Shown here: piece after piece, positions 1,800 to 9,948 of the stretch
How the letters are laid out: the number at the start of each line of letters is the position of its first letter
How positions within the stretch are numbered: the first letter of the stretch is position 1
Assembly (NCBI GenBank): GCA_035543495.1
Contig: DATKJT010000045.1
Location: 11,445 to 75,444 of the forward strand
Source of the DNA: Rhizomicrobium sp.
Lineage (GTDB): Bacteria > Pseudomonadota > Alphaproteobacteria > Micropepsales > Micropepsaceae
DNA length: 64,000 bases
Direction of reading: 5' to 3'
Program-made: the position numbers and the translations under genes
Notes under the pieces: model-generated
The model's database searches: none
The model's input: only the letters and a program-made list of their open reading frames with translations
Told to the model about the DNA's origin: nothing

Positions 1800-2524
1800 T
1801 CTTTCTGATCCGCCAGAATTTCCGCCGCGTGCCGCACCTCCAGCGCCATCCCTCTGCGCCGCGCACGCCCCGCAAGATGCAAAAGACACCCCAGATCGCC
1901 GCCCAACAGCATCGAAGCCCCGGTCGCTGCCGCATCCGTCAGCTTGTCATCGGCCATCCGTTCGGAAATCTCCGGGTATTTCACCGAAAACAATCCGCCG
2001 AACCCGCAGCAGATTTCCGGATCGGCGAGTTCGCGCTTCTCAAGCCCCGCAACGGAAGAAAGCAGGGCGCGCGGCTCTTCCCGCACGCCCATCTCGCGCA
2101 AGCTCGAACAGGAATCGTGATAGCAAAAACTTCTCGCGCAGGACGCCGGAACGGCCTTCACCCCGCACACCCGCACGAGGAACGACATCAATTCATAGCT
2201 TCGTTCCGCCAGCGCCACCGCGCGCGCCGCATACCGCGTATCGCCTTCCAGCACCTTGGGATAGTGCCGCCGCAACATTCCCGCGCACGATCCCGAAGGT
2301 GCTATGACATAGTCAAACCCTTCAAATGCATCGATCACGTTACGCGCGATCGCCGCCGCATCGGCATTGTCGCCCGCATTCCACGCCGGTTGCCCGCAGC
2401 AGGTCTGCGCTCGCGGCACGTCAACCTCGCAGCCCGCCTGTTCCAGCAGTTTCACTGCCGCAAACCCAACCTGCGGCCGCACCAGGTCGACAAGACAGGT
2501 GACGAAGAGCCCAACCTTCGGCAT
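1796..2524 (-). CDS. lutA: LutA (Fe-S)-binding protein, CCG domains
   Basis: MPKVGLFVTCLVD, QTCCGQP, SGSC, YHDSCS, CCGFGG; start at 2524 abuts the upstream stop. Confidence 0.93.
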   Translation of the reverse strand: MPKVGLFVTCLVDLVRPQVGFAAVKLLEQAGCEVDVPRAQTCCGQPAWNAGDNADAAAIARNVIDAFEGFDYVIAPSGSCAGMLRRHYPKVLEGDTRYAARAVALAERSYELMSFLVRVCGVKAVPASCARSFCYHDSCSSLREMGVREEPRALLSSVAGLEKRELADPEICCGFGGLFSVKYPEISERMADDKLTDAAATGASMLLGGDLGCLLHLAGRARRRGMALEVRHAAEILADQKE

Positions 2525-3357
2525 CAATGAATCTCGCGTTCCAAAGCGTAGGTGCGCTCGCGCAAGCCCAGCATGAATGCCTGCCGGTCCGCCGCCGGCG
2601 GCAGCGCCTCGAACCCGATTACCTCGCCCACACGCACCCGCACCTCGGTCCCGATCCGGTCGTGGATTTCCTTGAACAGCAGCGAAAGCCGCAACGTCAT
2701 GCTGATGTGACTCGCAATCTGGAACAGCCGCGAATTCTGGCCGGCAAAGAACACTGGTGCCACAGGCGCCCGCGTCTGCGCAATCAGCCGCCCGGTGAAC
2801 GTCTTCCATTCCGCATCGATGGCACGCCGGTCCCAAAGCGATGGCGTGGTCGAAACCCCGCCCGCCGGAAACACCACCAGACATCCTCCGCGCGAAAGAT
2901 GCAGCTTCGCCTCCGCCCGTGTCCGCAAATTCGTCTCAAGTGCTGCCTGCGTATCCGCAAAATCGACCGGCAACAGGAATGAGCGGATTTCCTCCGCCCG
3001 GTACAGAACCGAATTGGTCAGCACCCGGAAGTCGTCACGCACCTTTGCCACCAGATGACAGATGATGATCCCATCCAGCACCCCGAACGGATGGTTCGCC
3101 ACCACCACCAACGGCCCCGTCTTCGGCCACCGCCCCAACGCGTCGTCATTCACGGTGATCTTCAGTTCCAACCGCCGGATAGCCGCATCGAAAAACGTCT
3201 CGCCCGTCACCGGCCGTGCACGATTGTCCTCATAGATGTGCTTGAGATAGGGCTGCCCCGTCATCCGCTCGATGGCGCGGATCAAGGCCCGTTTCAGCCA
3301 CGGATCGCTCGGCGCCGCATAGGAAAACGTATCGACAGTATCCGCAGCGGCGCCCAT
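2524..3357 (-). CDS. Lysophospholipid acyltransferase family protein (PlsC/OlsA-like)
   Basis: VVANHPFGVLDG (HX4D) and VFPAGGVS motifs. Confidence 0.85.
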   Translation of the reverse strand: MGAAADTVDTFSYAAPSDPWLKRALIRAIERMTGQPYLKHIYEDNRARPVTGETFFDAAIRRLELKITVNDDALGRWPKTGPLVVVANHPFGVLDGIIICHLVAKVRDDFRVLTNSVLYRAEEIRSFLLPVDFADTQAALETNLRTRAEAKLHLSRGGCLVVFPAGGVSTTPSLWDRRAIDAEWKTFTGRLIAQTRAPVAPVFFAGQNSRLFQIASHISMTLRLSLLFKEIHDRIGTEVRVRVGEVIGFEALPPAADRQAFMLGLRERTYALEREIH

Positions 3358-3360
3358 CGC

Positions 3361-3819
3361 CTAAGCAGGATCTTCGATCAGAAACCCGCCCCGCCGCATC
3401 CCGAACCGAAGCGCCACATAAAGCAGCAGCCCCACTGGCCCCGCGAGCAATGTCAGCACCAGGCAGGGCACGACCGCCAGATGCGGAATACCGCGCCGCT
3501 GCGCATCGCGCACTTCCCACGACCCGACAAACAGATCGAACACGAGATAGTGAATCCATCCCGCCGTCGCCGCGACTGGCGAAGTGAAGAACGTCATCAC
3601 GCCGTGCAGCGAACTGAAATTTCCGCCCGCGGGCAGTGCGCCGCCGAAAAACACCGTTGCTATCAACCAGGTGTAGGTCAGTCCGATCACCACCGGAATG
3701 GCGACCGATTGCACCAGAAGCTCGGTCACCCGCCAGCGCGGCGCAACGATCAGCAGCAACCAGAAAATCAGAATGCCGTTGTTGGCGATATTGAAAACGG
3801 TCTCGACGTTCATGGTCAC
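3361..3819 (-). CDS. ABA4-like (DUF4281) membrane protein
   Basis: Four hydrophobic segments with GWIHYLVFDLFVGSW and LTLLAGPVGLLLY, typical of ABA4/DUF4281; GTGA overlap with upstream gene (alternative ATG at 3813). Confidence 0.8.
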   Translation of the reverse strand: MTMNVETVFNIANNGILIFWLLLIVAPRWRVTELLVQSVAIPVVIGLTYTWLIATVFFGGALPAGGNFSSLHGVMTFFTSPVAATAGWIHYLVFDLFVGSWEVRDAQRRGIPHLAVVPCLVLTLLAGPVGLLLYVALRFGMRRGGFLIEDPA

Positions 3820-4784
3820 ACCGGAAATCTGCGTTTCAGCCAGCCGATCATCGCATCATTGGTTTCCTGCGGGTGCTCCTGCTGCGTCCAGTGCCCGCAT
3901 TTGCGGATCAGCACTTTCTCCAGGTCCGGCACAAAGCGCTCCATCCCATCCGCCATCTTCGGCGAAAGGATCACGTCGTCTTCCGCCATGATCATCAGCG
4001 ACGGCTGATGCACCTTCTGCGCCCACGGCCCGGAAAGCTTCCAGTTGCGCGAGAAATTGCGGTACCAGTTGATGCCGCCGGTGAAACCCGTTCGTTGGAA
4101 CGTCTGCACGAAGTAATCCATTTCCTCTGGATTCAACAAAAGCTCGCCCGGCCACAGCGTTTCGTCCATCTCCAGCGCTTTCACCAGCGCGAAACGCTTC
4201 AATTCTTCCGGCATCTGCGCAAAGACGTCCGCCGTGATGCCGTTTTTGCGCATGAAAAAGCGGAACACGCGGCCCACATCCTTGGCCAGCGCCGCGTCGG
4301 CTTCGCCCGGCTTCTGAAAATAGACGATGTACATGTCCTCGCCATACAGCGCCTTCATGCCCATGATCGGATCGATCGGCGGCCGCGAAAGAAACGGCGT
4401 GTTGATCCCGATCACGCCCGCCACGCGATCCGGGTGCACCAGCGGCAATTGCCAAACCACCAGCCCGCCCCAGTCGTGCCCGACGAACACAGCCTTTTCC
4501 AAGCCGAGCGCATCCAGCATTCCGGTCAGATCGCCCGTTAGATGCAAAATGTCGTAATCCTCGATCTTCTCCGGCCGCGACGAACGCCCATATCCGCGCT
4601 GGTCCGGCGCAATCGCGCGATAACCTGCCGCCGCGAATGCCGGAAGCTGATGCCGCCACGAATAGGCAAGTTCCGGAAACCCGTGACACAGAACAACGGG
4701 AAATCCGTCCTTTGGTCCCGCCTCGTAAACGGCCATATCGATGCCGTTCGTTTTCACCATCGTGGGTTCGGGAAAGGCAACCAT
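3816..4784 (-). CDS. Epoxide hydrolase (alpha/beta hydrolase, EphA-like)
   Basis: HGFPE, GHDWG nucleophile elbow, GGINWYRN Tyr, CGHWTQQE catalytic His; GGAGG upstream of ATG 4784. Confidence 0.88.
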   Translation of the reverse strand: MVAFPEPTMVKTNGIDMAVYEAGPKDGFPVVLCHGFPELAYSWRHQLPAFAAAGYRAIAPDQRGYGRSSRPEKIEDYDILHLTGDLTGMLDALGLEKAVFVGHDWGGLVVWQLPLVHPDRVAGVIGINTPFLSRPPIDPIMGMKALYGEDMYIVYFQKPGEADAALAKDVGRVFRFFMRKNGITADVFAQMPEELKRFALVKALEMDETLWPGELLLNPEEMDYFVQTFQRTGFTGGINWYRNFSRNWKLSGPWAQKVHQPSLMIMAEDDVILSPKMADGMERFVPDLEKVLIRKCGHWTQQEHPQETNDAMIGWLKRRFPV

Positions 4785-4803
4785 AAAATTTCCTCCAAAT
4801 GTC

Positions 4804-6279
4804 TTATGCGGCAATTCCAAGTTTCGTCAGCATTTCGGCGCGCGAAGGCCCCAGCTTGGGCGGATAATACCCGTGCGCCGCTTTCTGCGCTTTCGACATC
4901 CGCCAGAATTTCAGGATGGTGGCCAGTATCTCGGGCCGCTTCAGCCAGTGCGATGGATCGTCCAGCATGTGAAACCCGCGTGAAAACGCGCGCAGCACGG
5001 TCAGGTCGCCACGCAACGCCGGCACCAATCCTTCTTCGATAAAGCTCTTCGCCATCCGCGCCCGCAGGCCAGGCTTGTAATTGGCGTCGCGCTCATGCCG
5101 CGCACGGCGTATCGCGACGCCGTCCTGCCGCGCCATCGCATCGTAAAACGGCCGCAACGTCTCGCGCGTGCGCCGCTCGAAAATCTTCGCCCGCGCGCGT
5201 GTATCGCCTTCCGCATCCAGCACCTCGCGCAACACATGCGCGTGCACGACACCCGCCGAACATCCGCGCCCGTAAAGCGGATTGGTCCTGACCGCCGCAT
5301 CGCCCACGGCAAAGAAATTCAGAACCTGCGGCTCGCCGTCCTTAAGGTAATGCCGCCAAACACTCTGCAGATTGCCCATGGAATAGATCGCACTGACAGG
5401 CTCAGCCCTGGTTTTCTCCACCCACCGTTCGGTTCCCGGCAGCGTGGCGCAAATGGCTTCAAACACTTCCGGCCGCATGATCATCGTGCGCAGATCGGAT
5501 TCGATTTCCGGCGTCGCCAGCGTGATGGAGAAATGCCGGTTGTCCGCAGCGAATACGCCGTATTTGATGTACCCCAGATCGGCCGCCAGCGGCGTTGCAT
5601 CCCGCAATGGTTCTTCCGCGCCATCGAGAAGGCGGTAGTGCCGCGTGAAATACAAAATCCCGGTCGGCGCCGTTTCCTCGCGAACCTCAATCCCATCTGC
5701 TCGCAGCCAGTCGGGAAAAGCGGTATTGCGTCCACTGGCATCCACAATGATGTCGCCGCGCAGATCCTGCATCTTGCCGTCGATCTCGGCCTTGATGCCC
5801 TCCGCCACAAGCGCGCTCCCGTCACGGCGCGTGAGAATGCCGTGGATACCTGCATCGGGCACAACGCGAATATTCGCGAATTGCTGCACATGGCGGCGCA
5901 ACACCAGTTCCATGGTGGTGCGACGGCTGAACAGGATGCGCAAATCCTCGTCGCCCGGTTGCGGCTTATATTTCTCGCGCAGATGCGGCGGAATCCCGAA
6001 CTGGAAGTCGAGCGCGCGCACGCCGTTCGCGAACAATTCCTCCAGCAACGCCGGATGCCGGTCGCGCAACAGAACGGTCAGCCGCCCAAGAAATCCGTGA
6101 CTGTGCCGGAGCTGCGTCGCCCCGCGCCGTTCCCACGAGGTGAACGCATCTTCCAGCGAATCCCCCGGCGGTTCGGGATCGCGGTCGAGCAATGTGACCT
6201 CGTGTTCGGTGCCGCCGAAGGCGAGCGCCACGCCGAGCCCTGCAATTCCGGCCCCCGCAACAAGTATATTTTCGGCCAT
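4804..6279 (-). CDS. FAD-dependent oxidoreductase/monooxygenase
   Basis: GAGIAG Rossmann, RRGATQLRHSH, DASGR and GDAAVRTNPLYGRG fingerprints. Confidence 0.82.
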   Translation of the reverse strand: MAENILVAGAGIAGLGVALAFGGTEHEVTLLDRDPEPPGDSLEDAFTSWERRGATQLRHSHGFLGRLTVLLRDRHPALLEELFANGVRALDFQFGIPPHLREKYKPQPGDEDLRILFSRRTTMELVLRRHVQQFANIRVVPDAGIHGILTRRDGSALVAEGIKAEIDGKMQDLRGDIIVDASGRNTAFPDWLRADGIEVREETAPTGILYFTRHYRLLDGAEEPLRDATPLAADLGYIKYGVFAADNRHFSITLATPEIESDLRTMIMRPEVFEAICATLPGTERWVEKTRAEPVSAIYSMGNLQSVWRHYLKDGEPQVLNFFAVGDAAVRTNPLYGRGCSAGVVHAHVLREVLDAEGDTRARAKIFERRTRETLRPFYDAMARQDGVAIRRARHERDANYKPGLRARMAKSFIEEGLVPALRGDLTVLRAFSRGFHMLDDPSHWLKRPEILATILKFWRMSKAQKAAHGYYPPKLGPSRAEMLTKLGIAA

Positions 6280-6645
6280 TTATTGCACCGTCTTCCACGC
6301 CGCATAAGCCAGCGCCGCCCATCCGACGAGAAAGGCAAGCCCGCCGAACGGCGTCACGATGCCAAGCCCCCGCACGCCCGTCAGCGCCAGCAGATAAAGC
6401 GATCCGCAGAACAGCACGATCCCGATCAGGAAAAACCATCCGGCCCAATTGGTCGACCCCGATCCGCGCAAGGCAACCGCCGCAATCCCGATCGCGAGCG
6501 CATGAAACATATGATAGAGCGCCGCCGTTTCGAACACGCTCATCGATTGCGGATCGTGAGACCCGCGCAATCCGTGCGCGCCAAATGCGCCCGCGGCCAC
6601 CGCGAGAAACCCGTTTACCGCCGCAACAACCAGCCATCCGTTCAT
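6280..6645 (-). CDS. DUF423 (YgdD/TMEM256) membrane protein
   Basis: AAGAFGAHGL, FETAALYHMFHA, LFCGSLY, TPFGG; start at MNGWLV (ATGA overlap). Confidence 0.9.
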   Translation of the reverse strand: MNGWLVVAAVNGFLAVAAGAFGAHGLRGSHDPQSMSVFETAALYHMFHALAIGIAAVALRGSGSTNWAGWFFLIGIVLFCGSLYLLALTGVRGLGIVTPFGGLAFLVGWAALAYAAWKTVQ

Positions 6646-7892
6646 GCGCAGCCACAGCCTCCGTGTACGTGATTGTGTTCCTTGATTTTCGCCACTGCGT
6701 TGCGCGAAAGCTCGGCCGTCGCCTCGAAATCCGATTTCGCCGTTTTCATCAGTTGCGGATCGCACATCAGGTCGATGGCCGTGAATGCCAGCGATTTCGC
6801 CCCGTCGATCACCGCCTGATCGCCCTGTTCCGAAGCCGCCCAGCGCGCGAATTCCGGATTGTGGATGATGACATTGGGCGGCGCCACCGCCAGCATCGGG
6901 TGGATCGACGGCACGCGATGGCTCACATTGCCCATGTCGGTCGAACCCGCGAACCCCGGCGGAATGTGCTCGACCGGAAAGAAATCGCGCCCCAGGGCTT
7001 GCGCGTTCTTTTTATAAGCCTCAGCCATCGGCCAGTTGGTCTTCAGGTCGAGATAATCGGTGATCCCCCACTGGATTTCCGCCTTGCAGCCAGTCGCAAG
7101 CGCTCCCGCCTCGAAACATGCGTGAACGCGTGCTTTCAATGGCGCCAGCTCATGCGCGTCCGCCGCGCGCACATAGAACCGGCAAGCTGCGCGCTCCGGC
7201 ACGATGTTCGCGGCCAGACCACCTTCGGTGATGATGCCGTGGATGCGTTCGGTGGGTTTGATGTGCTGGCGCAACTGCGCGATCGTTTGATACGCCGTCA
7301 CCACCGCATCCAGCGCGTTGAGCCCGCGATAGGGCATGGCGGAGGCATGTGCCGACCGCCCGTGATAAACGACTTCCACTTCCGAAATCGCGATGCACGG
7401 CATGGTGACCATGTTGAGATTGGAGGGATGCATCATCATCGCCGCATCCACTTTCTCGAACGCGCCTTCGCGCGCCATCATCTCCTTGCCGCCGAACCGT
7501 TCCTCCGCCGGTGTCCCCATATAGCGAACGCGTCCCGGCAACCGCCCGTTGAGCTTGGACAGCGCAATGGCCGCCCCATAACCGGAGGTCGCAATAATAT
7601 TGTGCCCGCAGGCATGGCCGATGCCGGGCAGGGCGTCATATTCCGAAAGGATCGCGATGTTGGGGCCGGACGCCTTGCCGAACTCCGCCGCAAACGCCGT
7701 CTTCAGCCCAAAGGCTTCCCGTTGCACCTCGATGCCATGCCCCGCCACCGCATCGCCCAGCCGTTTGGCCGCTTTGAACTCCTCCAGCGCCAGTTCGGGC
7801 TCGCCGTGAATCGCATGCGAAAGGGCGAGGAATTCCTCCCGCATGGCGTCGATGGCAGCCCCCACATCCTTCTTCAGGCTTTCGGCATCCAT
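6642..7892 (-). CDS. M20 family amidohydrolase (PM20D2/ACY1L2-like)
   Basis: EYDALPGIGHACGHN, GTPAEE, HASAMP, GSTDMGNVS. Confidence 0.9.
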   Translation of the reverse strand: MDAESLKKDVGAAIDAMREEFLALSHAIHGEPELALEEFKAAKRLGDAVAGHGIEVQREAFGLKTAFAAEFGKASGPNIAILSEYDALPGIGHACGHNIIATSGYGAAIALSKLNGRLPGRVRYMGTPAEERFGGKEMMAREGAFEKVDAAMMMHPSNLNMVTMPCIAISEVEVVYHGRSAHASAMPYRGLNALDAVVTAYQTIAQLRQHIKPTERIHGIITEGGLAANIVPERAACRFYVRAADAHELAPLKARVHACFEAGALATGCKAEIQWGITDYLDLKTNWPMAEAYKKNAQALGRDFFPVEHIPPGFAGSTDMGNVSHRVPSIHPMLAVAPPNVIIHNPEFARWAASEQGDQAVIDGAKSLAFTAIDLMCDPQLMKTAKSDFEATAELSRNAVAKIKEHNHVHGGCGCA

Positions 7893-7957: not shown

Positions 7958-8746
7958 ATGCCCGATTTCGCCACTGCCGCAGACGGTGTCCGCCTCGCCT
8001 ACGATGTCGTGGGGCAGGGGCCTCCGGTCCTCCTGATTCATGGCTTCGCCTCCAGCCGAACCCAGAACTGGAAAGACGCCGGCTGGTACCAAACCCTCTC
8101 CGGCGCAGGCTATCAGGTCGTCGCGATGGACTGCCGCGGCCACGGCGAAAGCGACAAGCCGCACGAGATGGAATTCTACGGCCACGACAAGATGGCCGAA
8201 GATGCCCGCACAGTGATGACCGCCACCGGCATCGCGCCCACCTTCCTGATGGGCTACTCGATGGGTGGCTTCATCTCGCTGCACCTTCTCCTCGAACACC
8301 CTGATGAATTGCGAAAGCTGGCCATTGGCGGCGTAGGTGCCACCTATCTGAATACCTCTCCCCAACCCGGCAACCGCATGGCCGATCCGCAAACGCGCAA
8401 TCGCATCGCCGATGCCTTGATAGAACCCGACAAATCGAAGATCGCCGACCCCACCGCGCGAATCTTCCGCGATTTCGCCGATCAATCCGGCAAGGATCGC
8501 CTGGCGCTCGCTGCCTGCATGCGCGCCATGCGCCGCAACTTCCCGCAAAACGAATTGCGCCAATCGCAGCGTCCCGTTTTGGTTGTTTGCGGCGAAAACG
8601 ACGTGCTCACAGGCCCGCCCGGCCCACTGGCCTCTGCCTTCGCCGATGGCCGCGCCGTCACCGTGCCGCGCCGCGACCACATGACGACCGTTGGCGACAA
8701 GGTCTATAAGGCCGCCGTATTGGAATTCTTTGGACAAAGCCCATGA
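7958..8746 (+). CDS. Alpha/beta hydrolase
   Basis: [18 protein letters not shown] nucleophile, RDHM His. Confidence 0.85.
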
Positions 8747-9948
8747 ACGCTCATTCGAAAATATCGCCGGAAAAAGAAGCGCCCTACGATTGGGCCGATC
8801 CGCTGCTGCTCGACGAGGAACTGACTTCGGAAGAACGCATGGTCCGCGATTCCGCACGCGATTATTGCACCGACAAGCTGCTCACCCGCGTGCGCGAAGG
8901 CTTCCGCCACGAAACCTTCGACCGCAAGATCGTGAACGAGATGGGCGAGATCGGTTTCCTCGGCATCACGCTGCCCGAAGAATATGGCGGCGCGAACATG
9001 AACTATGTGTCATATGGCCTCGTCGCGCGCGAAGTCGAACGCGTGGATTCCGGCTATCGCTCCGCCATGAGCGTGCAGAACTCGCTCGTGATGTATCCGA
9101 TCTTCGCCTACGGCACCGAAGAACAGCGCAAGAAATATCTCCCCAAACTCGCAAGCGGCGAATTCGTCGGCTGCTTCGGCCTCACTGAACCCGATTTCGG
9201 CTCCGATCCCGGCGGCATGAAAACGCGCGCCGTGAAAGAGCAGGGCGGTTACCGCCTCAACGGCGCGAAAATGTGGATCACCAATTCGCCCATCGCAGAC
9301 GTTGCGGTGGTGTGGGCGAAAACGGAAGACGGCGTTATCCGCGGGTTCATCGTCGAACGCGGCACCAAAGGTTTCTCCACACCGAAGATCGAAGGCAAAT
9401 TCTCGCTGCGCGCCTCGATCACCGGCGAAATCGTGCTGGAAGACTGCATCATCCCCGAAGCCAATCTCCTGCCGAACGTGAAGGGATTGTCCGGCCCCTT
9501 CGGCTGTCTCAACCGCGCGCGTTATGGCATCGCCTGGGGCGCGATGGGTGCTGCCGAATTCTGCTGGCACGCCGCGCGCCAATACACGATGGACCGCAAA
9601 CAATTCGGCCGTCCGCTCGCCGCCAATCAATTAATCCAGAAAAAACTCGCCGACATGCAAACCGAAATCACCCTCGGCCTGTTAGGCGCGCTGCGTCTGG
9701 GCCGCATGATGGACGATCACAAGGCTGCTCCGCCCGCGATCTCGCTCATGAAGCGCAACAATTGCGGCAAGGCGCTCGCCATTGCGCGTGAAGCCCGCGA
9801 CATGCACGGCGGCAATGGCGTGTCGGACGAATATGGTGTCATCCGCCACGTTCTCAATCTCGAAGCGGTGAACACTTACGAGGGCACGCACGATGTTCAC
9901 GCCCTCATCATGGGTCGCGCGATCACGGGCATTCAGGCGTTCAGCTAA
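8743..9948 (+). CDS. gcdH: Glutaryl-CoA dehydrogenase
   Basis: [44 protein letters not shown]. Confidence 0.9.

Follow-up and report, generated by a model that had tools for sequence, protein, structure and literature searches.

A 64,000-nucleotide stretch of a Rhizomicrobium sp. genome (contig DATKJT010000045.1, positions 11,445 to 75,444; hereafter the window) carries a series of tightly packed minus-strand genes, part of which the first-pass annotation had read as a four-gene cassette for lipid-epoxide tailoring. Analysis of these genes indicated that window positions 3361-6645 probably (at a probability of about 0.55) represent one copy of an alphaproteobacterial module that would process lipid epoxides. 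This module can be written DUF423-[FAD]-EH-[DUF4281], in which FAD denotes the gene for a 491-amino-acid flavoprotein and EH an epoxide hydrolase gene. EH is its constant core, FAD and DUF4281 are facultative members that have been lost repeatedly, and DUF423, whose membership had been missed, is the first gene of the conserved unit. An acyltransferase gene (AcylT), an M20 amidohydrolase gene and lutABC, which are packed equally closely around it, lie outside the module.

EH (3816-4784, minus strand; ATG start with a GGAGGA Shine-Dalgarno sequence) was unambiguously predicted to encode an alpha/beta-fold epoxide hydrolase of the soluble epoxide hydrolase (sEH)/EphA type. Its product aligned with Mycobacterium tuberculosis EphA (5cw2) over residues 5-317 with an E-value of 3.7e-83 and with mammalian soluble epoxide hydrolase at about 1e-74. 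E-values across the sEH family (EphA, mammalian and plant enzymes) ranged from 4e-83 to 1e-55, and the top 34 distinct PDB sequences were all epoxide hydrolases. In an alignment with EphA (5cw2), the motifs HGFP (residue 34), GHDWGG (102), YIVYFQ (152), NWYRN (239), EDD (268) and GHW (297) were all found, making up a complete catalytic set of HGXP oxyanion motif, Sm-X-Asp-X-Sm-Sm nucleophile elbow (with the Asp in GHDWGG), two cap tyrosines and a His/Asp pair. The score against EphA and the full motif set thus bear out the EphA-type assignment made in the first-pass annotation. These catalytic motifs are shared with EphA, the C-terminal domain of mammalian sEH and plant sEH. Flanking DUF423 or DUF4281 genes have not been described for characterised sEH members, whereas the window EH is flanked by both.

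FAD (4804-6279, minus strand) encodes a class-A flavoprotein monooxygenase, a predicted epoxidase that contains both the FAD-binding GXGXXG Rossmann motif (GAGIAG at residue 9) and the class-A GD motif. The RRG..Q.RH.H pattern reported earlier was present (RRGATQLRHSH, residues 51-61); the second reported motif, GDAAVRTNPLYGRG at residue 326, has four rather than three residues between GDA and NP. Closeness to the polyether epoxidases MonCI and Lsd18 was judged by the ranking of PDB matches. In phmmer searches, MonCI (2.9e-11) and Lsd18/LasC (about 1e-7) led, with the next matches at 0.01. An AlphaFold2 model built with 54 homologues (predicted local distance difference test, pLDDT, 93) placed Lsd18/MonCI on top in Foldseek (1e-26, TM 0.68-0.76), with Bmp2 and KMO (7e-18) approximately nine orders of magnitude behind, together with PqsL, halogenases and squalene epoxidase. 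The proposed kinship to polyether epoxidases was therefore sustained, in that MonCI and Lsd18 are the closest characterised relatives by sequence and by fold. Searches with Pfam and NCBIfam models returned none above cut-off, and among more than 2100 homologues none carried a functional name (all 'UbiH-like' or 'hypothetical'). The organism names of close homologues agree with Rhizomicrobium (Micropepsaceae) as the source.

MonCI (monensin) and Lsd18/LasC (lasalocid) are class-A flavin monooxygenases (PDB 8t3p, 9udb, 8wvb; PMC10560226, PMC12144862) that share with the window flavoprotein the motifs GXGXXG, R(R/K)G..Q.RH.H and GD(A/S)x4NPxYGxG as well as a C-terminal helical domain. They occur in actinomycetes, in polyether polyketide synthase (PKS) clusters, and act on a polyene tethered to an acyl carrier protein (ACP), whereas the flavoprotein studied here is from Alphaproteobacteria; their partner is an NTF2-fold epoxide-opening cyclase (MonB/Lsd19-type), whereas FAD is partnered by an alpha/beta-fold epoxide hydrolase. 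According to PMC10560226, the polyether epoxidases constitute a separate clade. No PKS, ACP, MonB-type or NTF2-fold gene was present among the neighbours of FAD in the window. Because of this lack of a polyether context, and of an identity to MonCI/Lsd18 of about 18-25%, the flavoprotein is probably MonCI-like in its mode of action rather than a member of the polyether-epoxidase family. Its nearest relatives and its recurrent EH partner are consistent with an alkene epoxidase activity. Lipophilic alkenes are plausible substrates, since MonCI crystals have been obtained with both farnesyl acetate and the corresponding monoepoxide (entry titles of PDB 9udb and 9udd).

Both membrane proteins of the module were firmly assigned to their families, and the Pfam, NCBIfam and PDB identities concurred with the labels given in the first-pass annotation. 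DUF423 (6280-6645, minus strand) encodes a small polytopic membrane protein of the YgdD/TMEM256 type (PF04241, 1.9e-27, 95.7 bits against a gathering threshold of 25). DUF4281 (minus strand; 3361-3813 from an ATG, giving 150 amino acids, or 3361-3819 from a GTG) encodes an ABA4-like four-helix membrane protein (PF14108, 1e-41, 142.8 bits against a gathering threshold of 27), of which residues 7-134 span positions 1-127 of the 127-position profile; the ATG is the start used by homologues. Its invariant residues are W18, Y47, W86, H88, D93, G97, G125, P126 and G128. Its AlphaFold2 model (pLDDT 94) gave nothing better than E=1 in Foldseek, and neither profile nor sequence searches with DUF4281 and DUF423 retrieved anything from the PDB. 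A styrene-oxide-isomerase-like or other known fold was therefore rejected for either protein, as was distant homology between the two (hhalign probability 0.8%).

Plant ABA4 (Arabidopsis At1g67080) is a small four-helix membrane protein of the same Pfam family, PF14108. It is needed for formation of neoxanthin from the epoxy-carotenoid violaxanthin, a product of the flavin epoxidase ZEP; plant ABA4 is thus tied to epoxide chemistry genetically, and bacterial DUF4281 genomically. Although ABA4 has been linked genetically to epoxy-carotenoid conversion since 2007, no activity has been demonstrated, and ABA4, NSY and NXD1 yielded no neoxanthin in violaxanthin-producing Escherichia coli (PMC12317632). 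The biochemical activity of the plant protein accordingly remains unproven (PMC12317632; PMC7004913). Judged by titles and abstracts, the literature that mentions DUF4281 apparently does not address bacterial members, and the DUF423/YgdD papers listed concern antimicrobial uptake rather than lipids.

Styrene monooxygenase StyA, a flavin epoxidase, is followed by StyC, a small integral-membrane styrene oxide isomerase that acts on the epoxide. This pair sets a precedent, in that the catalyst which transforms the epoxide is itself a small membrane protein. It differs from the present case in that DUF4281 and DUF423 lack similarity to anything in the PDB and in that the flavoprotein is MonCI-like, not StyA-like.

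Conservation of gene order was examined in a comparison of about 130 loci (individual genomes and loci are designated G and L, respectively). An even sample of the class comprised 401 alphaproteobacterial genomes from 294 genera, with 20 kb inspected around each FAD. GTDB species genomes contained at least 589 FAD loci, and counts were taken from the best 80 of these plus 16 loci of earlier samples. Gene calls in these loci of 60% GC relied on a codon-position GC score and on tblastn searches using the window proteins; length-based open reading frames gave antisense artefacts. In the even class sample, FAD was found in 17 of the 401 genomes and 7 of the 294 genera. EH stood directly beside FAD in five of these seven genera, DUF423 was adjacent to FAD or within about 3.5 kb in four, DUF4281 was present in two, and AcylT occurred in the window's own genus only. 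In the GTDB-based set, 62 of 88 assessable loci had EH directly 3' of FAD, 53 of 92 had DUF423 adjoining FAD upstream, and 26 of 87 contained DUF4281. AcylT was located within 2.5 kb in 25 of 84 assessable loci, all from the Rhizomicrobium clade.

The arrangement of the module varied between lineages. Parvibaculaceae showed DUF423-FAD-EH, with or without DUF4281, and a second Micropepsaceae-like group showed FAD-EH-DUF4281 with AcylT 5-6 kb downstream (L066, L072, L073, L080). Among FAD-negative genomes, DUF423-EH was found in G372 and G346, DUF423-EH-DUF4281 in G083, EH-DUF4281 in G230 and, in G100, DUF423-EH followed after 1.6 kb by DUF4281. By locus, the pairings were DUF423-EH (L152, L162, L166), DUF423-EH-DUF4281 (L160) and EH-DUF4281 (L165); DUF423 adjoined DUF4281 in L168, L170 and L172. 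Genus g143 has DUF423 and DUF4281 side by side, with FAD in another part of the genome. In G385, the FAD orthologue stood beside a non-orthologous EH of a different clade (37% identity). Overall, module combinations (DUF423-EH, EH-DUF4281, DUF423-DUF4281 and FAD-EH) occurred in at least six alphaproteobacterial families, and EH adjacency mapped on the FAD tree required at least five changes of state. The groups in which module genes recur together are soil and water bacteria. That the four genes were combined and ordered so variably across at least six families, with differing surroundings, points to a functional module rather than residual synteny.

At E<=1e-80, EH was present in 36 of the 401 genomes (23 genera): 12 of the 17 FAD-positive versus 24 of the 384 FAD-negative genomes. 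In Caulobacter, Phenylobacterium and related genomes, FAD stood by itself, with mltA/smr or a dsbA-like gene on one side and hisE/hisF on the other. Since mltA, smr, the dsbA-like gene, hisE and hisF are housekeeping genes, reading a partner of the stand-alone Caulobacteraceae FAD from its neighbours was rejected. Genomes of Caulobacteraceae, Phenylobacterium, Sphingomonas and Hyphomonadaceae with a stand-alone FAD contained an unlinked EH with 51-61% identity. The co-conservation anticipated in the first-pass annotation thus held for FAD, EH and DUF4281, which were linked across several families, and failed for AcylT, which was linked in the Rhizomicrobium lineage only.

Three loci showed further variants of the FAD-EH arrangement. 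In L031:10803-12844 (G326), FAD was followed by two tandem EH genes with 51% and 61% identity to the window EH. In L086:11383-12317, approximately 930 nt without a detectable EH separated FAD from DUF4281; an EH gene may have decayed there or been replaced. The Parvibaculum-type genome G033 contains, next to a two-component system (L018:8627-12179), a distantly paralogous pair of monooxygenase and EH, which consists of an 826-amino-acid frame that combines 2Fe-2S, FNR-type reductase and class-A monooxygenase parts (21% identity to FAD) and an alpha/beta hydrolase resembling EH (35%).

The association of DUF4281 with EH was analysed separately. In the class sample, DUF4281 was present in 37 of the 401 genomes (25 genera), and 9 genomes from 5 genera had it no more than 2 kb away from EH. 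Twelve genera contained both genes, versus about 2 expected (Fisher odds ratio 21.6, p 6e-9), a test that is indicative only, as genera are not independent. In the DUF4281 tree, 21 of 21 EH-linked copies were separated by a single branch (support 93/83) from 25 unlinked copies. This split indicates, at the level of sequence, that an EH-associated DUF4281 subfamily exists; most DUF4281 genes outside this clade are not next to EH. Within the genus sample, DUF4281 was found only where FAD-EH was present, and always inside the cluster. General DUF4281 neighbourhoods were diverse, with nothing there that indicates epoxides. A second, unrelated context was observed in other alphaproteobacteria, in which DUF4281 was fused to (L124:8957-10228), or stood directly 5' of (L131, L133, L136-L139), a multi-pass membrane protein of approximately 270 amino acids with an (A/P)SHFN motif and, usually, a divergent TetR-type regulator.

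In the module as proposed, the soluble MonCI/Lsd18-like flavoenzyme would use NAD(P)H and O2 to epoxidise C=C bonds of a lipophilic, probably membrane-resident substrate. The sEH/EphA-type hydrolase, whose catalytic apparatus is intact, would then convert the presumed lipid epoxide to a vicinal diol. Because two members of the module are polytopic membrane proteins, we infer that the substrate sits in the membrane. DUF423 and DUF4281 might, speculatively, hold the lipid or present it, or serve as membrane docking sites for the soluble enzymes. It can further be speculated that DUF4281 steers the fate of the epoxide by binding or redirecting it; the invariant Tyr47, His88 and Asp93 in its membrane helices would in that case bind or activate the oxirane. 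The gene linkage would, by inference, give bacterial ABA4 a function. In a wider form of this proposal, which we regard as doubtful, DUF4281/ABA4 proteins would serve epoxide processing as dedicated partners in the membrane, or would even catalyse it, and one bacterial subfamily would act on a membrane lipid together with sEH and a MonCI-like epoxidase, in parallel to plant ABA4 and the violaxanthin formed by ZEP.

The genomic context narrowed the choice of substrates. Five carrier genomes (G000, G013, G021, G033, G193), among them the window's genome and Parvibaculum-type carriers, yielded no genuine lycopene cyclase and only partial matches of 33-104 residues, mostly to the N-terminal Rossmann segment; a xanthophyll is therefore very unlikely as substrate of the bacterial system, a difference from the role of plant ABA4. 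A tandem pair of SQS_PSY genes (hpnC/hpnD-like; G000:C14:13378-15032), with a third SQS_PSY gene on C8, suggests squalene or hopanoid synthesis in this Rhizomicrobium. Parvibaculum-type carriers contained one weak SQS_PSY gene only, which makes a shared squalene/hopanoid substrate unlikely. A common xanthophyll or squalene substrate was thus rejected, in view of the missing lycopene cyclase in the five carriers and of the missing hpnC/D-like pair in Parvibaculum-type carriers. Polyprenyl or unsaturated acyl chains are candidates.

Directly 3' of the module, genes for a SnoaL_3 (NTF2-like) protein, a GT4 glycosyltransferase, an S-adenosylmethionine (SAM) methyltransferase and an (alpha/alpha)6-barrel protein formed a cluster in four families (Parvibaculaceae, g141, g147 and g143); the window's genus is without it. 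Its sites were L109:12661-~17000, L106 (after FAD), L170:8040-11774 and G164:C1:563510-567638, with a second methyltransferase on the opposite strand in some loci. In g147, SnoaL_3 lay directly 3' of FAD, in a genome that yielded no EH. NCBIfam naming of the SnoaL, GT4 and methyltransferase genes gave nothing specific. This cluster could represent an extension of the pathway or synteny.

The junctions in the window were read directly. Nine minus-strand genes run from position 7892 down past position 1, in the order M20, DUF423, FAD, EH, DUF4281, AcylT, lutA, lutB and lutC. The DUF423 ATG overlaps the M20 stop codon (ATGA), and the DUF423 TAA abuts the FAD ATG with no spacer. The FAD TAA and the EH ATG are separated by 19 nt that include GGAGGA. 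The EH TGA either overlaps the DUF4281 GTG by 4 nt (GTGA) or leaves a 2-nt gap to its ATG, and 3 nt separate the DUF4281 TAG from the AcylT ATG. AcylT and lutA meet in TGATG, and both lutA/lutB and lutB/lutC overlap in ATGA. The description of four co-directional genes with gaps of at most 19 nt and one GTGA overlap, flanked by M20/DUF423 upstream and lutABC downstream, was therefore accurate. Their delimitation as a unit was not: the flanking junctions are equally tight, so that the packing marks a nine-gene array and the four-gene boundary is arbitrary. The array contains a single promoter-like site (7948-7919, minus strand), just 5' of M20, which was not above chance.

At the ends of the array, M20 (6642-7892, minus strand), its first gene, matched TIGR01891 with 224 bits against a cut-off of 153.75, and lutA (1796-2524), lutB (396-1799) and lutC (1-399, running off the window), all on the minus strand, were assigned by CCG-domain and LdhH-like matches. 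Synteny of M20 with the array was confined to the genus and that of lutABC with AcylT to the Rhizomicrobium lineage. Divergent from the array, and syntenic with it genus-wide, are genes for an alpha/beta hydrolase (7958-8746, plus strand) and an acyl-CoA dehydrogenase (8743-9948, plus strand).

AcylT (2524-3357, minus strand) encodes an acyltransferase of the Acyltransf_2 family (PF19576, 62.4 bits against a cut-off of 27) with the motif NHPFGVLDG at residue 88, which corresponds to the NHPxGxxDG catalytic motif. It shares this domain and motif with the N-terminal domain of OlsF (NF052615) and with GlsA (NF053697). Unlike these, it scored below both equivalog cut-offs (OlsF, 1.3e-43, 149.5 bits against 620, over the N-terminal half of the profile only; GlsA, 7e-24, 84.4 bits against 260), is a single-domain protein and is not linked to an N-acyltransferase gene. 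It is the sole PF19576 gene in the window's genome, which elsewhere, unlinked to AcylT, encodes an OlsB-like N-acyltransferase (PF13444; G000:C32:176592-176930, 109.7 bits, in a 280-amino-acid open reading frame). On these grounds, AcylT most likely encodes an aminolipid O-acyltransferase that would act on the lyso-aminolipids formed by the OlsB-like enzyme. The TIGR01891 family includes N-acyl-amino-acid amidohydrolases. As M20 shares the array with a lyso-aminolipid-type AcylT, aminolipid turnover may have been the original theme of the genus-level operon.

The four-gene pathway put forward in the first-pass annotation, in which FAD would epoxidise, EH and DUF4281 would open or rearrange the epoxide and AcylT would incorporate the oxidised acyl group into a membrane lipid, could draw on the translational coupling of all four genes, on the position that AcylT keeps across the Rhizomicrobium clade, immediately 3' of EH or DUF4281, and on its presence 5-6 kb downstream in the sister Micropepsaceae-like group. 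That clade-wide position includes the FAD-less DUF423-EH-AcylT loci of G006, G011, G015 and G041. M20 and lutABC are, however, coupled just as tightly, and no AcylT was found near the module in the loci examined from Parvibaculaceae, g141, g249, f59, f76 and f124. Moreover, AcylT was present in 13 of the 25 genomes of the genus sample, of which 7 lacked FAD, and in G004, G010 and G018 it stood without FAD and without an orthologous EH beside it. As the only Acyltransf_2 gene, with an unlinked OlsB-like partner, it would be needed for an ordinary aminolipid role. AcylT was therefore placed outside the module, as a bystander that shares a transcription unit with it in the window's genus, and its participation in a common pathway is improbable.

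An unlikely but somewhat less remote explanation centres on detoxification or housekeeping by EH. EH, DUF423 and DUF4281 would then clear epoxides that arise non-enzymatically, by lipid peroxidation, or externally, and FAD would be an unrelated class-A hydroxylase that came to lie between DUF423 and EH by chance. EH is indeed the most widespread member, DUF423-EH(-DUF4281) without FAD was found in three further families as well as in the window's own genus, FAD stands alone amid housekeeping genes in Caulobacteraceae, and its identity to proven epoxidases is low. This explanation does not account for the position of FAD immediately 5' of EH in many lineages, the recruitment of a non-orthologous EH in G385 or the about 12-fold enrichment of EH in FAD-positive genomes, and every one of the closest characterised FAD relatives is an alkene epoxidase. 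Even less probable is the absence of any functional link, with synteny inherited among related alphaproteobacteria by genes of unrelated processes. All carriers found were Alphaproteobacteria (with a few metagenome-assembled genomes labelled otherwise), the EH-linked DUF4281 copies form a single clade, the backbone of the EH tree was poorly resolved, and the whole nine-gene block is syntenic within the genus. Between families, however, the module genes remain neighbours, in various pairings and orders, although the genes around them apart from DUF423 differ wholly, and co-occurrence of DUF4281 and EH at the genus level was far above expectation.

Several observations weigh against a module for lipid epoxides. 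At about 18-25% identity to MonCI/Lsd18, epoxidase chemistry of the flavoprotein cannot be taken for granted. Of the sampled genomes, 24 contain EH but no FAD, genus g147 contains FAD without any EH at E<=1e-80, and FAD stands alone among housekeeping genes in Caulobacteraceae; epoxidation and hydrolysis are thus not obligatorily coupled. The carriers are related alphaproteobacteria, so that the counts are phylogenetically non-independent. For DUF4281, none of 28 loci outside the window in a second sample had FAD or an sEH-type EH within 10 kb, its presence on the FAD tree required at least nine gains or losses, and genomes without DUF4281 in the cluster had none elsewhere either. Since the EH-linked copies trace to one clade, the linkage may reflect a single ancestral event followed by inheritance.

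For annotation practice, these results illustrate that translational coupling alone overstated the extent of a pathway, as AcylT proved to be a bystander. The combination of an epoxidase with an epoxide hydrolase is familiar chemistry; its recurrent genomic coupling to two uncharacterised membrane-protein families, DUF423/TMEM256 and DUF4281/ABA4, was not encountered in full-text literature searches. The results also mark a family of more than 2100 flavoproteins as candidates for the epoxidation of lipids or isoprenoids beyond polyketide clusters. If the wider proposal for DUF4281/ABA4 proteins holds, it would provide a first role for DUF423/TMEM256. An independent link of the ABA4 family to epoxide enzymes in bacteria supports a role in lipid-epoxide metabolism and, as cultured and easily manipulated carriers such as Parvibaculum indicum DSM 25305, Sphingomonas mucosissima DSM 17494 and Phenylobacterium sp. 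Root1290 exist, would offer a tractable bacterial system for the biochemical function of ABA4.

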